A stretch of 64,000 bases of DNA, taken from the UHGV virus genome UHGV-0293664; one strand, given 5' to 3'. How positions within the stretch are numbered: the stretch's first letter is position 1; every line of letters begins with the position of its first letter. This DNA is from a virus. Below the pieces are notes generated by a model. The model made no database searches, was not told where the DNA came from, and was given only the letters and a program-made list of their open reading frames with translations. Positions 58,888 to 63,281 of the stretch are shown piece by piece. Made by a program: the position numbers and the translations under genes.

Positions 58888-59175
58888 TCATAGCGTCTCT
58901 AAAATTTCATACCCTTCGGGTCGGAAAACAAGCCACTCAGGTGCTCCATTTGGTCGATACGCTTTATACAGAACAACCTGATCTCGGCACATACACATTG
59001 CTACATAGTTTTCATCCACACCTGCAGCCTGCATTGCATCTTCTTCTCCGGCAACCGCTTTGCTTACAACTTCCTTGGTAGGCAGGTGGGCGATCAGTTC
59101 GTCACCATCGTTAATTCCAAAATGGCTGAGTTCTCCATTGGTGTCTTTAATCTTGATCTTAACCAAATCTTTCAT
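58888..59175 (-). CDS. small acidic protein
   Basis: 95 aa; start overlaps upstream stop. Confidence 0.75.
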   Translation of the reverse strand: MKDLVKIKIKDTNGELSHFGINDGDELIAHLPTKEVVSKAVAGEEDAMQAAGVDENYVAMCMCRDQVVLYKAYRPNGAPEWLVFRPEGYEILETL

Positions 59176-59504
59176 TAGTCTTCCCCCAAGTTCAAAGGCC
59201 CTAAGATCTCATATGCCAGATTAGAGGTTACCAGGGGATCTTCTGCATCTTTAGTATTATACCACCCGTGAATAACCAGAGTCCCACTTTGCTTCATGTC
59301 TAACTGGAACTGTTCTGCCGTTTCCTCATCCATCTCCAAGATCTCCATGAGGTATTTGATGTTAGGAAGGTATGCAGCTGTTACAGTCCCCTCTACCAGG
59401 CCTTCAGGCCAACCTACATCCGGATGACAAGTAGGGACCAGAGAGGTCAGCTTGATAGTGTATGCTTTTTCTGCACGAGCCTTCAGTAACGGATCAATTT
59501 TCAT
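59175..59504 (-). CDS. small acidic protein
   Basis: 109 aa; translationally coupled. Confidence 0.75.
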   Translation of the reverse strand: MKIDPLLKARAEKAYTIKLTSLVPTCHPDVGWPEGLVEGTVTAAYLPNIKYLMEILEMDEETAEQFQLDMKQSGTLVIHGWYNTKDAEDPLVTSNLAYEILGPLNLGED

Positions 59505-59854
59505 TATTCTTCCTCCTCTGCGGTGCCTGCTTCCAGTAGTAAGTTAAGAACATCTTCAGCAGAAGGTTCGTAGAACTCTTGGCCTTCGTTGTCGATGACA
59601 CGATAGTCATCACCACGAATAATCAGAGGATCGTTATCAAAACCTTCAAGACCTTTAACAACGACAACACGGTCGATTGCCATCATTGTAAGAACTTTAT
59701 CAACACCTTCCTCTGCCACACCATACTGCAGCAGAATGTCTTTGGTAGGAGGAACAGCATCAACCACAACACCGTTACCAAAACCTTCCGGAAGTTTAGC
59801 TAAAATATCTTCCGGAACCGCATTCATATCAAAACCTGTGATCTCTACTTTCAT
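59504..59854 (-). CDS. small acidic protein (related to family B)
   Basis: 116 aa; poly-Glu C-terminus; MKVEITG...PEGFGNG. Confidence 0.75.
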   Translation of the reverse strand: MKVEITGFDMNAVPEDILAKLPEGFGNGVVVDAVPPTKDILLQYGVAEEGVDKVLTMMAIDRVVVVKGLEGFDNDPLIIRGDDYRVIDNEGQEFYEPSAEDVLNLLLEAGTAEEEE

Positions 59855-60115
59855 TTACAGCACCTCTTCGTCAACTACTTCATAAAAATGGCTCGGGATT
59901 GCAATAGCGTTCTCACCTTCACCTACAAACACAGTCCCGTCAAGGATCAACATCATAAGAATGTCTGTAATATCCTCCTCCGGAACGTTGCCAAAACCTT
60001 TAATCAACTTACATGTCGGGACATTCGCCTCTAGGATGTCTCCATCTTTAGAACGGAAATCAACACCTTCCTGAATCTCTGCCGTTTCAAGGTTTTTCAA
60101 TTTAATCTTCATCAA
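59855..60115 (-). CDS. small acidic protein, family B
   Basis: 86 aa; AGGAG SD; MKIKL...FVGEGENAIAIPSHFYEVVDEE paralogous to 61280-61549. Confidence 0.75.
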   Translation of the reverse strand: MMKIKLKNLETAEIQEGVDFRSKDGDILEANVPTCKLIKGFGNVPEEDITDILMMLILDGTVFVGEGENAIAIPSHFYEVVDEEVL

Positions 60116-60191
60116 TCGGTCTCCTATCTTGTTAAGATGAAGGTATTATTGCACACAGGGTTGGTGTTGTCAACACCTGTGTGGCATAAAA

Positions 60192-60587
60192 TTACTGAAA
60201 CAGTGCAGATAAATTACCTTCTGGTGGGAACTTATCTGCCAGGAATGGGGTTAGAACAGTGGCCTTCTGAAGATCAGGGGTCCACTCATTGTTCAGAACA
60301 TCCCAGTAGTACGCAATGTTGCTGTGTGGGTGCCGCATTACGAACTTTTTCCCTTCGTAGTCGGTTGAAACCTCTACAGAAGAAATAACAACAGAATCTT
60401 CGAGGGTTTCTTCATAGAAAGATCCGCCCTCAAATTTCCAACGAGATGCAAGAGCTCCTGCCTTGAACGCTGCAGATAACGGACTATCTGCAAGAACATA
60501 CATTTCTTGCACTCTATCACTGCGATCTTTGCTTCTTACGTTGTATACAGTATCCGAGCTATACTCAACACGGTATAGACTTACCAT
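60192..60587 (-). CDS. hypothetical protein, family C
   Basis: 131 aa; RHPHSNIAYYWD...WTPD paralogous to 62396-62794. Confidence 0.75.
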   Translation of the reverse strand: MVSLYRVEYSSDTVYNVRSKDRSDRVQEMYVLADSPLSAAFKAGALASRWKFEGGSFYEETLEDSVVISSVEVSTDYEGKKFVMRHPHSNIAYYWDVLNNEWTPDLQKATVLTPFLADKFPPEGNLSALFQ

Positions 60588-60919
60588 TACCGAACCTCCT
60601 CAATAACTTCCACATCTGAACCCACCACAAATGCAAAAGGACAGGTTTCATGAAAGATATCCGGATCTCCACCAAGCTTGCTAACTATCTCTCCACCACT
60701 AATAAACACAAGCTCACCAATATTCATCAGATTGCTAAAATAGTAGCCATAATGATTGAAGAATGCAGCTGGGTCAGGCAGACTGGTGGCCTCAAGCTCT
60801 ACATTGCTTGAGATCACTTTCTTATCATACCCTCTCGCCTTTTGAGATGCAAGATCTGCAGAGTCTTCAGGAGACCGGAGATGCACAGGAATTGTTTCAC
60901 CAATAAAGCGTACTTTCAT
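60587..60919 (-). CDS. small protein, family A
   Basis: ATG 60919 gives MKVRFIG... matching family A N-termini; track start 60946 overlaps upstream gene. Confidence 0.7.
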   Translation of the reverse strand: MKVRFIGETIPVHLRSPEDSADLASQKARGYDKKVISSNVELEATSLPDPAAFFNHYGYYFSNLMNIGELVFISGGEIVSKLGGDPDIFHETCPFAFVVGSDVEVIEEVR

Positions 60920-60923
60920 ATTC

Positions 60924-61187
60924 TTACCCCACAACCATAGCTTCAAAAGGTGTCATAAACGAATAAACAGCATCATCATCTGCTTCAGGGAATGCCCCCA
61001 AAGACTTTATGTCTGATCCCTTGACAAATACAAGGTTTTGATCAAAAGCTTCTTGTGGATCAATCCGATACATATCTCGTAGGATACCACTTACCTCCTC
61101 ATCAAGAGGCGAGTATGCTGTGCACGTTTTTCCAATCAAGCTTTGAGAATCAGGGTATCCACCTGAAGTTTTAAAATAAACAATCAT
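60924..61187 (-). CDS. small protein, family A
   Basis: 87 aa; KGSDIKSLGAFPEADDDAVYSF resembles GSDLIAAGAPE...YYAF. Confidence 0.75.
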   Translation of the reverse strand: MIVYFKTSGGYPDSQSLIGKTCTAYSPLDEEVSGILRDMYRIDPQEAFDQNLVFVKGSDIKSLGAFPEADDDAVYSFMTPFEAMVVG

Positions 61188-61279
61188 ATAGTATCACCTC
61201 TGGTAAGAGATGGGGATTCCTTTCCCACAAATAATTATAAACCTTTCTTGTCGAGGAAAGTATTCCAACCCAAGCAGGA

Positions 61280-61549
61280 TTACTCTTCTACAACCTCATA
61301 CACATCCGGAGTTACAATCAACTCCTCTCCATTACCTGGAGCAACAAACACTACCAAACCTTCCGGTGTGTGCTTTTTAGCCATCTCTATGACATCTTCT
61401 CGCAGAGCCGGCTCCATCAGATCAAAACCTTCACCCAGGGCATCACGAACCACCTTCATGTAGTCAACTGGTTGTGCTTCAACGATCATGCCTTCAACCA
61501 GTCCACAGTTTTTGTCTGCCAGCTCAGTTTGGAATAATTTAATTTTCAT
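61280..61549 (-). CDS. small acidic protein, family B
   Basis: 89 aa; MKIKL...VFVAPGNGEELIVTPDVYEVVEE. Confidence 0.75.
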   Translation of the reverse strand: MKIKLFQTELADKNCGLVEGMIVEAQPVDYMKVVRDALGEGFDLMEPALREDVIEMAKKHTPEGLVVFVAPGNGEELIVTPDVYEVVEE

Positions 61550-61692
61550 TTAGAGGTCTCCTCAATTATTTGATATTAATAGCCGTAACCTAACACATTA
61601 ACTACAACTGCGATTGCAAACATAATTTCAAAGCATGCAATCTCTACATTTGGGACTAATTTTTTAATCATGCCTATTGTAGCACCTTAATC

Positions 61693-62004
61693 TCAAAAGT
61701 CAATCTTTACTTTACCTTTTCCCTTACCTTTCTTTCCACCGCATTTAGCCAACTGGCGTGCTGCAACATCTACCATACGGTCAGTTGCCTCGTAAGCATC
61801 ACTACCTTTAGCTTTGGCGATAACTTCTTTCCCAGAATTGTCAAAAATGAAAGCCATAACTTCCTGGTGATCATTTTCAACTTTTACACTCACACGTGCA
61901 TAGTTGGCAGAGGGGTGCAAACGCTCCAGCTTGGACATTTTGTTGGAAATGAAAGACACCATACCTTCAGTGATCTCCACGTTGCCAGTAATTTCAATTT
62001 GCAT
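61693..62004 (-). CDS. hpf: ribosome hibernation promoting factor / RaiA (YfiA) family protein
   Basis: 103 aa; MQIEITGNVEITEGM...KLERLHP...VSVKVEND...KAKGSDAYEATDRMVDVAARQLAK aligns end to end with bacterial HPF pattern; extra Lys/Gly-rich tail. Confidence 0.8.
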   Translation of the reverse strand: MQIEITGNVEITEGMVSFISNKMSKLERLHPSANYARVSVKVENDHQEVMAFIFDNSGKEVIAKAKGSDAYEATDRMVDVAARQLAKCGGKKGKGKGKVKIDF

Positions 62005-62087
62005 AATGTGTTCCTTTTAAAGAAGAGGGAACCAAACCCTCTTTGAAAACAATGATACTAAATCTGAAGCGTTGTGTCAACAGTTTT

Positions 62088-62378
62088 TTACAGCTTGTTG
62101 TCAATAGTATCTAAAATATCTACAGCAAGATCTGCCATTTTTCGAACATACTCTGCAAACTCAACAGGATCCTTGATCAAAGAATTCACAGGGTCGTACC
62201 CTAGAGCGTTCAAAATGGCTGCAGCATCTACAACCTTCTCATCATTTGCGAAGATCTCTCCGTCAAACTTGTAGGTCCATTTTGAGTCAATCTTGGCAGG
62301 GAAGGATTGGTCAATGCTTATTGCACCATCGTCTTTAAACTCTCCTGTGTTATCAATATTCAGAACTAAATCCATCAT
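62088..62378 (-). CDS. small acidic protein
   Basis: 96-aa ORF in operon. Confidence 0.75.
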   Translation of the reverse strand: MMDLVLNIDNTGEFKDDGAISIDQSFPAKIDSKWTYKFDGEIFANDEKVVDAAAILNALGYDPVNSLIKDPVEFAEYVRKMADLAVDILDTIDNKL

Positions 62379-62395
62379 AGTGGCACCTCACTGTT

Positions 62396-62794
62396 TCAGT
62401 TTAGCTTTTCTTCAACAACCCCATAGCTCGGGGCAGAGTCAAGAGCTTTTTGGTTTAAAAGTGGTGTAGCAGAATCTGCAAACGGTGTCCAAGTTTTTGT
62501 TCTGGCATTCCAATAATGTTTCACTCTGGAATCTGGATGCACTATAACAAAAACTTTTTCACTTGTCAACACATTAATTTCTTCCACACCCCTGCTGATA
62601 ATTTCTCCGTCATAGCCACCAGTCTGGTATCCTTCGTACCAGGTTCTTGCATAGGCATAGCCAGCCTGCCAGCATGCAGCCTCTTCAGAGGTGGAGACTA
62701 CGTAGAAGTCTTTCTCAAATTCTGGGATACGCCCTTGCTTTACGCTCCAAGCTCCGCGAATTTTCATTGTAACTTTGAACAGTTTATTTTTCAC
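62396..62794 (-). CDS. hypothetical protein, family C
   Basis: 132 aa; VHPDSRVKHYWNARTKTWTPF. Confidence 0.75.
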   Translation of the reverse strand: MKNKLFKVTMKIRGAWSVKQGRIPEFEKDFYVVSTSEEAACWQAGYAYARTWYEGYQTGGYDGEIISRGVEEINVLTSEKVFVIVHPDSRVKHYWNARTKTWTPFADSATPLLNQKALDSAPSYGVVEEKLN

Positions 62795-62806
62795 AACAGT
62801 TCCCCA

Positions 62807-63064
62807 TCACAGCTCTAAAATATCTGCATCTGATCCTACCCCAAAGGCATAATACGATTCCTCTCCGAAATAATATTCTGGGGCACCAGCCGCAATCAGG
62901 TCTGATCCTAAGATGAACACCACATTGTGGCCTACATATCCGCGAAAATTTTGCCGCACAGGATCATCCCACGGCAACCCTTCAAAGTATACAGCAGGTA
63001 CGACCTTTCCTTTCAGGAAGGATTGTCCCAAGTAGACGTTAGAGTCAAGAATTTTAACCTTCAT
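62807..63064 (-). CDS. small protein, family A
   Basis: 85 aa; MKVKILDSNVYLGQ...GSDLIAAGAPE. Confidence 0.75.
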   Translation of the reverse strand: MKVKILDSNVYLGQSFLKGKVVPAVYFEGLPWDDPVRQNFRGYVGHNVVFILGSDLIAAGAPEYYFGEESYYAFGVGSDADILEL

Positions 63065-63281
63065 GATCGTCCTCCACTATCTCCACATCCTCCCCTAGGG
63101 CAAAGTTGTAGGTCCACTGACTGTCAAAGCATTCCTGGGATGCACCAGCGGCAATAAGATCTGCACCTTTTATTTTTAAAAGGTCAGGATAATCTTCGTT
63201 AGGGATAGCGGTAAACACTTTCCCCACTAAGGGCTCCTGACCAATATAGAAGCTTGAATCTAAAACTTTAACTTTCATCAA
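63054..63281 (-). CDS. small protein, family A
   Basis: 75 aa; MMKVKVLDSSFYIGQ...GADLIAAGASQE. Confidence 0.7.
   Translation of the reverse strand: MMKVKVLDSSFYIGQEPLVGKVFTAIPNEDYPDLLKIKGADLIAAGASQECFDSQWTYNFALGEDVEIVEDDHEG

Follow-up and report, generated by a model that had tools for sequence, protein, structure and literature searches.

The early region of a 64,000-nucleotide (nt) viral sequence, UHGV virus genome UHGV-0293664 (the whole of this stretch being termed the window), carries a series of small genes that appear twice in similar order, raising the question of which genes were duplicated, how long ago, and what has since become of the copies. An original prediction, made by inspection of the sequence, proposed duplication of a cassette of four genes from three families (A-A-C-B) at positions 59855-63281, with a gene of the HPF family in one copy only. 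The analysis described here supports a somewhat different account, namely that the locus is likely to derive from an ancient tandem segmental duplication in the early block of rV5-like phages, overlaid by single-gene duplications, insertions at junctions and deletions.

Three protein families in repeated order

The region between positions 59500 and 63600 was found to share 97.5% identity with Escherichia phages NHEP1 and S127 BCL3, and 92-95% identity with approximately 110 further Vequintavirus (rV5/FV3-like) genomes. The window is the early region of a Vequintavirus E. coli phage, encoded on the minus strand. All of the genes studied are on this strand, within a long run of small genes annotated as hypothetical that lies downstream of genes for ClpP and a methyltransferase. 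The ten open reading frames (ORFs) originally listed were all confirmed at their coordinates and strand. Each is preceded by a ribosome-binding site of the GGAG/GAGG type and corresponds to an annotated gene in phages FV3 and S127 BCL3, with the annotated starts of A1 (63278), A4 (60919) and B2 (60112) being ATG codons situated slightly inside the longest ORFs.

In order of transcription, five groups were distinguished: A1, A2, C1 and U; HPF; an ORF of 31 amino acids (aa) and B1; A3, A4 and C2; and B2, B3, B4 and B5. Gaps of 83, 143, 92 and 79 nt, which contain promoter-like sites, separate these groups, while spacing is -11 to 17 nt within A1-A2-C1-U, -1 to 4 nt within A3-A4-C2 and -1 to 0 nt within B2-B5. 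Both C genes directly follow an A pair (spacing of -1 to 12 nt), B1 stands alone between the gaps of 143 nt and 92 nt, and B2 opens a four-gene B array. Given the short spacing inside groups and the larger gaps between them, the tightly packed unit that is repeated is therefore A-A-C. This core unit (A1-A2-C1 and A3-A4-C2) is probably translationally coupled, with genes of family B following after an intergenic gap, B1 behind the first unit and B2-B3-B4-B5 behind the second.

Families A, B and C are true homologous families. Smith-Waterman scores of protein pairs were compared with those of 1000 shuffles, resulting in z-scores of 24 (A1-A2), 10.3 (A2-A4), 8.1 (A1-A4) and 4.5 (A1-A3) for family A, 17.4 (C1-C2) for family C, and 5.6 (B1-B2) and 6.8 (B2-B3) for family B, against -0.9 to 2.7 for equally acidic pairs drawn from different families, controls with U included. 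Comparison using hhalign gave probabilities of 71-99% for most within-family pairs, those of family A being 99.5% (A1-A2), 95% (A2-A4), 91% (A1-A4), 85% (A3-A5) and 83% (A1-A3), while comparisons of A with B, of C with A or B, and with six neighbouring proteins were all below 11%. The A1-A2 relationship was also evident with blastp (E-value 6e-15, in a small database) and that of C1-C2 with phmmer (E-value 2e-11), and PHROGs places A1 and A2 together in phrog_5009 and C1 and C2 together in phrog_7379. A jackhmmer search from A1 against 520 six-frame ORFs recovered only A2, A3 and A4 together with a fifth member. This fifth member, A5, is ORF119 of FV3 and is located approximately 3 kilobases (kb) upstream, just past the end of the window. 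The sequence motif on which family A had originally been defined applies less widely than the family itself, as GSDLIAAGA is common to A1 and A2 only.

Evidence for family B was weak initially (B1-B2 blastp E-value 0.13, hhalign 14%), with all-against-all searches showing a consistent net of weak links that joined B1, B2 and three genes downstream of B2. The hhalign comparison was then rerun with divergent orthologs added from two relatives, L006 and L007 (described below), which gave 94% for B1-B2 (76 columns), 94.5% for B2-B3, 87% for B1-B5, 83% for B3-B5 and 80% for B3-B4, with alignments spanning mostly 59-81 columns; B4-B5 reached 49%. Furthermore, the B3 ortholog of L007 also matches B4 (E-value 4e-4), and a structure search of BFVD with the B1 model returned the B5 ortholog of phage ECP32 as top match (probability 1.00, template modelling score 0.56).

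It is extremely improbable that these similarities are merely compositional, arising from acidic bias and from the frequent MK[IV]K start: B1-B2 was indeed marginal at first, and such a start with an E-rich tail is common to many proteins, but both the shuffle z-scores and the hhalign probabilities separate within-family from cross-family pairs, and the structural search, an independent approach, put B5 top for B1.

Union of A and B as one superfamily was also considered, since both show an MK[IV]K start, five predicted strands and a (Y)E[IV]VE tail, and was not established, with a family-level hhalign probability of just 10.7% over 29 columns. No match of the family C motif (HP.S...YW....WTP) to a WW domain was present in Pfam at an E-value of 1 or below. 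The description of U as unrelated to the three families was upheld, hhalign giving less than 5% against A, B and C for U, as it did for FV3 ORF118 (132 aa, adjoining A5), ORF120 and four unrelated inserts of L006 and L007. The portrayal of the encoded proteins as tiny and acidic fits most members, the isoelectric point (pI) being 4.0-4.9 in all A, B and C proteins except C1, which at 7.8 is not acidic; that of HPF is 9.0. Coordinates of the features are given in the table.

Table. Genes and candidate promoters of the repeated block and its flanks, in order of transcription
Feature	Coordinates	Strand	Evidence
A1, family A, 74 aa, pI 4.1	63054..63278	-	phrog_5009 (E-value 2e-38); L007 ortholog at 68% identity
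A2, family A, 85 aa, 11-nt overlap with A1	62807..63064	-	phrog_5009 (E-value 5e-32)
C1, family C, 132 aa, GTG start, pI 7.8	62396..62794	-	phrog_7379
U, acidic, 96 aa, copy 1 only	62088..62378	-	phrog_12029
Candidate sigma-70-like promoter TTGACA-17-TATCAT (11/12), directly upstream of HPF	62052..62080	-	consensus scan
HPF/RaiA-family gene, 103 aa, basic	61693..62004	-	PF02482, TIGR00741
31-aa hydrophobic ORF between HPF and B1, equivalent of FV3 ORF137	61576..61671	-	translation; annotated in FV3 and other records
B1, family B, 89 aa, pI 4.3	61280..61549	-	
A3, family A, 87 aa	60924..61187	-	jackhmmer from A1 (E-value 1e-22); weak phrog_5009 match (E-value 1.6e-4)
A4, family A with insertion of ~50 aa, 110 aa	60587..60919	-	hhalign, shuffle z
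C2, family C, 131 aa, pI 4.9, 1-nt overlap with A4	60192..60587	-	phrog_7379 (E-value 4e-66)
Candidate sigma-70-like promoter TTGACA-17-AATAAT with TG, upstream of B2	60145..60173	-	consensus scan
B2, family B, 85 aa	59855..60112	-	hhalign, shuffle z
B3, family B, 116 aa, pI 4.05	59504..59854	-	phmmer B2-B3 (E-value 6e-6)
B4, family B, 109 aa, most divergent member	59175..59504	-	hhalign B3-B4 80%, B4-B5 49%
B5, family B, 95 aa	58888..59175	-	hhalign B1-B5 87%

Age and origin of the repeated block

Two relatives at genus level were used to place the duplications in time, namely L007, a contig of an E. coli assembly, and L006, a metagenome contig (ClpP identities of 69% and 61%, respectively). 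The gene order of L007 was found to be A1, A2, an unrelated 96-aa gene in place of C1, U (45% identity), HPF, B1, A3, A4, C2, an unrelated 98-aa gene and B2, B3, B4, B5. That of L006 was two unrelated genes in place of A1 and A2, then C1, two tiny ORFs, B1, B2, B3 and B5, with U, HPF, A3-A4-C2 and B4 missing. The C gene of L006 is of the C1 type, while that of L007 (P0092) is of the C2 type (40%, against 27% identity to C1). The genes missing from these relatives are most simply explained as losses or replacements.

In neighbour-joining trees, every paralog slot grouped with its own orthologs from L007 and/or L006 at 87-100% bootstrap, the exception being the three-way B2 grouping that includes L006 (45%). 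As each slot groups with its own orthologs, the duplications are therefore older than the L006 and L007 lineages. At deeper nodes, support was 100% for A1 with A2, 64% for A3 with A4, 95% for A5 with a gene of lambdoid phages, and 27-53% for the nodes of family B. Amino acid identity among the copies is now 23-47%. Identities between genera are 28-69%, somewhat under those of ClpP and the methyltransferase (69-85%) and typical of neighbouring early genes. A dot plot of one copy against the other had been put forward as a check, and no nucleotide repeat between the copies was found: a repeat search of 58.5-64 kb returned only short chance repeats, the longest direct repeat being 37 nt at 73% identity and none being collinear between copies, an event of this age being beyond what such a search could reveal.

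Tandem segmental duplication is the most economical account of three paralogous families that occur in the same order twice, adjacent and on one strand; each of A, C and B is represented in both halves, and the copies are contiguous. The most probable course of events is that a unit resembling A-C-B was copied head to tail through illegitimate or short-homology recombination, after which A would have been doubled or homogenised inside each copy and B expanded in the second. Host-derived HPF, with a candidate promoter of its own, and U would have come to sit at the C1/B1 junction. The copies have since diverged, and each is now under purifying selection. The trees fit a single duplication of an A-C(-B) unit with later doublings of A, and fit equally well a four-gene duplication followed by gene conversion.

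Several points weigh against this account. B2 is as near to B3 as it is to B1 (hhalign scores of 45 and 42), and membership of B in the duplicated unit is not demonstrable. The tree of family A pairs A1 with A2, and not A1 with A3 and A2 with A4, so that a copy of A-A-C-B made in one step would need gene conversion. Collinearity is itself a modest statistic, with approximately 12 of the 420 possible orderings of AAAACCBB forming a perfect two-unit repeat, there being only two C genes and the proteins being short. For its functional part, the account has only the genomic position, the charge and folds of a generic kind to draw on. Lastly, co-retention of A, C and B is loose, as L006 holds C1 and B1 without A, and L007 holds A1, A2 and B1 without C1, which argues against an obligate A-C-B complex.

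The cassette as originally delimited is recognizable in that the families do repeat in order, adjacent and on one strand. Its boundaries were drawn too narrowly, with B3, B4 and B5 continuing downstream (58888-59854) and the fifth A gene lying upstream of the block, and the unit is not cleanly one of four genes. That a single event copied A-A-C-B, with U and HPF inserted later between C and B of the first copy, is doubtful. The order A-A-C-(U-HPF)-B followed by A-A-C-B is real, A2-A4 is the best cross-copy A pair as position would predict (hhalign score of 47.6, against 37.7 for A1-A4), B1 and B2 align at high probability, and both U and HPF are missing at this junction in L006. Nevertheless, the sister relationships of A1 with A2 and of A3 with A4 make gene conversion a requirement, A1-A3 is no better than A2-A3 (hhalign scores of 32.6 and 31.9), and B2 not only scores as well with B3 as with B1 but also leads the tight B2-B5 array behind a promoter-like site of its own. 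Comparison with related phages, a further check that had been proposed, agreed with the later arrival of U and HPF through their absence from L006 but did not show the cassette genes to be retained together.

A more radical alternative is that the block was never duplicated, with independent tandem duplications of A and B and mosaic recombination with other phages supplying the second C and second A genes, and with collinearity being coincidental. The locus is a hotspot of gene flux, as seen in the unrelated genes in place of A1 and A2 in L006 and of C1 in L007, a TnpB gene nearby in L006 and the deletions of phage Bas59, and family A moves between types of phage. Against this, C and B are confined to this lineage, so that an outside donor is not visible, and each C gene is found immediately behind an A pair; this alternative is quite improbable. 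When 5.8 billion clustered proteins were searched with profiles of families A, B and C, and 1.84 billion representatives were scanned exhaustively with HMMER for family C, only Vequintavirus-like contigs of approximately 120-140 kb were returned, aside from the A-type lambdoid gene and two matches to repeat proteins (P0096, P0097) that were discarded as spurious.

The A-type lambdoid gene is an A5-like gene of 75 aa carried by the lambdoid phages mEp554 and mEp010 and also by E. coli prophages (L003 6001-6228, L004 6001-6228), where it is located among small ORFs between the Q antiterminator and holin genes, a classic moron region. Family A therefore crosses the divide between temperate and virulent phages, by way of this gene.

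Two further features of the relatives were observed. The 96-aa gene that replaces C1 in L007 (8068-8358) is homologous to a 91-aa gene upstream of C1 in L006 (9367-9642), both sharing the pattern ...LDG.D..P.VNRV.EL..K...; it is without a counterpart at this position of the window, which suggests a further ancestral gene that was lost from the rV5 lineage. The TnpB gene of L006 (13532-14644), of the TnpB/IS605 OrfB family and encoding 370 aa, is an insertion within the syntenic early region, downstream of the B array by a few kb.

Junctions, HPF and promoter-like sites

The HPF gene product was identified with PF02482 (49 bits against a cut-off of 23.7, residues 3-88) and TIGR00741 (46.3 bits against a cut-off of 40.9). 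The HPF of rV5 and FV3 has been published as virus-encoded and host-derived, clustering among gammaproteobacterial sequences and being under purifying selection (Mizuno et al. 2019, PMC6375957). The rV5 protein was not detected in purified ribosomes after its expression (PMC6375957). The gene itself was thus already known; reading it as cargo inserted at a unit junction is reasonable. In agreement with this, it has a promoter-like site of its own, is missing from L006 and is retained in L007, where C1 is gone. The proposal of a cargo insertion site between C and B accordingly stands as regards U and HPF, which are extra in one copy and gone from the same position in L006. The number of extra genes given for this interval was two and requires amendment, as the 31-aa ORF is located there also.

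The junctions of the block are fluid in gene content, as U and HPF, C1, A1-A2 and A3-A4-C2 are each absent from one relative or another. Paralogs continue to recombine. A hybrid A1/A2 gene of 70 aa was found in place of A1 and A2 in two independent assemblies (L011, L012), its crossover lying in a stretch of approximately 20 nt that encodes DLIAAGA and is the sole DNA similarity retained by A1 and A2. A fusion gene of C1 and U also exists (P0093). In phage Bas59 (EduardKellenberger), isolated on E. coli K-12, a deletion begins inside ORF120 and extends almost to the end of C1; this phage is without A1, A2 and most of C1, and these genes are therefore dispensable in the laboratory. The Bas59 deletion (L010 3635-4102) brings the first part of the ORF120 homolog into fusion with the final 33 codons of C1, with the product being annotated as a putative glycosidase. 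Elsewhere, a metagenome contig of 657 base pairs (bp; P0084) was found to encode a chimeric protein that combines the N-terminus of DUF7399 (PF24132) with the C-terminal half of B4 and is either a further junction recombinant or an artefact of assembly.

Promoter-like sites are no more frequent in the region than expected by chance (14, compared to 12.5 +/- 3.0 in shuffles). Those upstream of HPF and B2, matching 11 of 12 consensus positions, are candidate promoters and leads only. In the intergenic sequence between C2 and B2 (60113-60191), an 8-bp inverted repeat (CACACAGG...CCTGTGTG) was observed to bracket the -35 hexamer of the near-consensus promoter, placing the hexamer in the loop. The predicted RNA fold of this interval has a z-score of -5.0, reached by none of 200 shuffles, and the repeat may act as an operator, or may form a structured 3' end for the unit upstream. 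A second structure, at 62005-62087, consists of a GC-rich hairpin (AGAGGG-N7-CCCTCT) followed by TCTTT directly after the near-consensus promoter of HPF. It looks like a terminator of the A1-A2-C1-U unit, positioned at or just after the predicted start of HPF transcription.

Three further observations concern this part of the locus and its database records. A stretch of U (62264-62290) shares 78% identity over 27 nt with A1 (63101-63127), both encoding the motif DS(K/Q)WTY(K/N)F, which is conserved in the L007 orthologs of U and A1; the shuffle z-score of the pair is 3.8, with an hhalign probability of only 4.7%, and U may retain, in its N-terminal half, what is left of an A-type gene. B1 is labelled as a sigma 54 modulation factor in several genomes (OQ626344, MK883717, MK883718 and others), with some records containing two such genes. 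As B1 has no match to PF02482 or TIGR00741 (Pfam E-value of 1 or below, NCBIfam E-value of 0.1 or below), has a shuffle z-score of 1.8 with HPF and is modelled as an SH3-like barrel, this label looks like an annotation error that has spread from the neighbouring HPF. In addition, eighteen GenBank records named as Campylobacter phages (host given as C. jejuni in 16) hold the rV5-like region at 92-98% identity, with some being partial at 35-75 kb, which suggests that they are mislabelled or contaminating coliphage sequence.

Selection, function and comparison with known systems

Comparison with FV3, Bas59 and S127 BCL3 gave ratios of non-synonymous to synonymous substitution (dN/dS) of 0.00-0.28 for all A, B and C genes. 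C2 showed no non-synonymous changes against 19 synonymous and B1 showed one against 10, with U being the most variable gene. Each copy is under purifying selection and conserved within the genus, and the genes are not fast-evolving at present, contrary to what had been supposed. Since each copy has been kept by purifying selection, the paralogs have presumably taken on distinct roles.

An AlphaFold model of B1 (predicted local distance difference test score of 93.4) has the form of an SH3-like barrel with a helical insert. It differs from other such barrels (SH3, KOW, integrase C-terminal domain) by an insertion of approximately 30 residues between strands 2 and 3; no match of family B to SH3 or KOW models of Pfam was present, and the fold is too generic for a function to be assigned. 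Family C is modelled as an alpha/beta domain with a small beta-meander, C1 resembling the eL20/LX-like alpha/beta fold in its predicted structure. This resemblance to a protein of the archaeal and eukaryotic large subunit is at fold level only: sequence similarity was absent in profile searches of Pfam, NCBIfam and PDB, bacteria do not possess eL20, C2 is acidic, and PurS and other small alpha/beta proteins score almost as well. Both model-based resemblances are therefore leads, the folds being generic and without sequence support.

Regarding function, the A, B and C proteins gave no match in Pfam (E-value of 1 or below), in NCBIfam and PADLOC (E-value of 0.1 or below, chance matches far below threshold aside) or in PDB sequence profiles, and no literature on the function of Vequintavirus early genes was found. 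The best guess, held with low certainty, is that they are non-essential early host-interaction proteins, small and mostly acidic binding modules with paralogs specialised for different targets. They would be transcribed early by the host RNA polymerase and would bind and modulate host proteins during takeover.

A narrower role in anti-defence, with the acidic paralogs serving, for example, to mimic DNA or to inhibit restriction or abortive-infection systems and having diversified in an arms race, is unlikely. The low pI of most members, the early location, dispensability on K-12, multiplied paralogs and variable presence among relatives are all in keeping with such a role. However, models of Pfam, NCBIfam and PADLOC gave no match, diversifying selection was not seen within the genus, and the SH3-like barrel of B1 is not a known DNA-mimic architecture. 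An exceptional sensitivity of Vequintavirinae to restriction-modification systems has also been reported (PMC8594841), which weighs against a broad anti-restriction role. It is very improbable that the locus is a takeover module directed at the ribosome, in which the eL20/LX-like C proteins and the SH3-like barrels, whose fold is usual among ribosomal proteins and KOW factors, would act with HPF to dock onto host ribosomes or remodel them, given the strongly acidic nature of most members and the lack of co-retention of A, B and C with HPF in relatives. If this were true, the duplication would have yielded two variant sets of ribosome binders.

Regarding previous descriptions, the matches to phrog_5009 and phrog_7379, both of unknown function, are full-length (E-values of approximately 1e-32 to 1e-73), so that paralogy of A1 with A2 and of C1 with C2 is already implicit in PHROGs. 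That resource keeps A3 (phrog_13920), A4 (phrog_13661), B1 (phrog_11868) and B2 (phrog_12359) apart and does not address gene order or duplication; the wider families A and B, of five members each, are newly joined here. In the rV5 genome paper there is no reference to paralogs or to duplication, and papers naming these PHROG identifiers were not found. The position of HPF within a duplicated block was not described by Mizuno et al. (2019, PMC6375957). To what is known of this gene in rV5 and FV3, its own promoter-like site and its lack in L006 are added.

In rV5-like phages, which see wide use in biocontrol of E. coli O157, the findings reduce 14 hypothetical proteins to families A, B and C, two of which have confident structural models. 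The natural deletion and hybrid variants identified (Bas59 and the A1/A2 hybrids) are directly usable for functional tests. This locus does not reveal a new kind of system. It offers a clean and datable example of a multi-gene unit that would have been copied, with copies that diverged and were retained, in the "dark matter" of the early region of a large virulent phage, the junctions of the units now serving as points of entry and exit for genes such as the host-derived HPF.

Families of tandem paralogs occur commonly in T4-, T5- and SPO1-like phages and in jumbo phages. The genes described here resemble the paralogous small-gene arrays of such large virulent phages in being small, packed, early, multiplied in tandem, dispensable in the laboratory and variable among relatives. 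They differ in that three families are interleaved in a repeated order, which is less often documented than arrays of a single gene, and in that all copies are old and conserved and not recently expanding. This is an ordinary mode of phage genome evolution, at a locus for which it had not previously been described.

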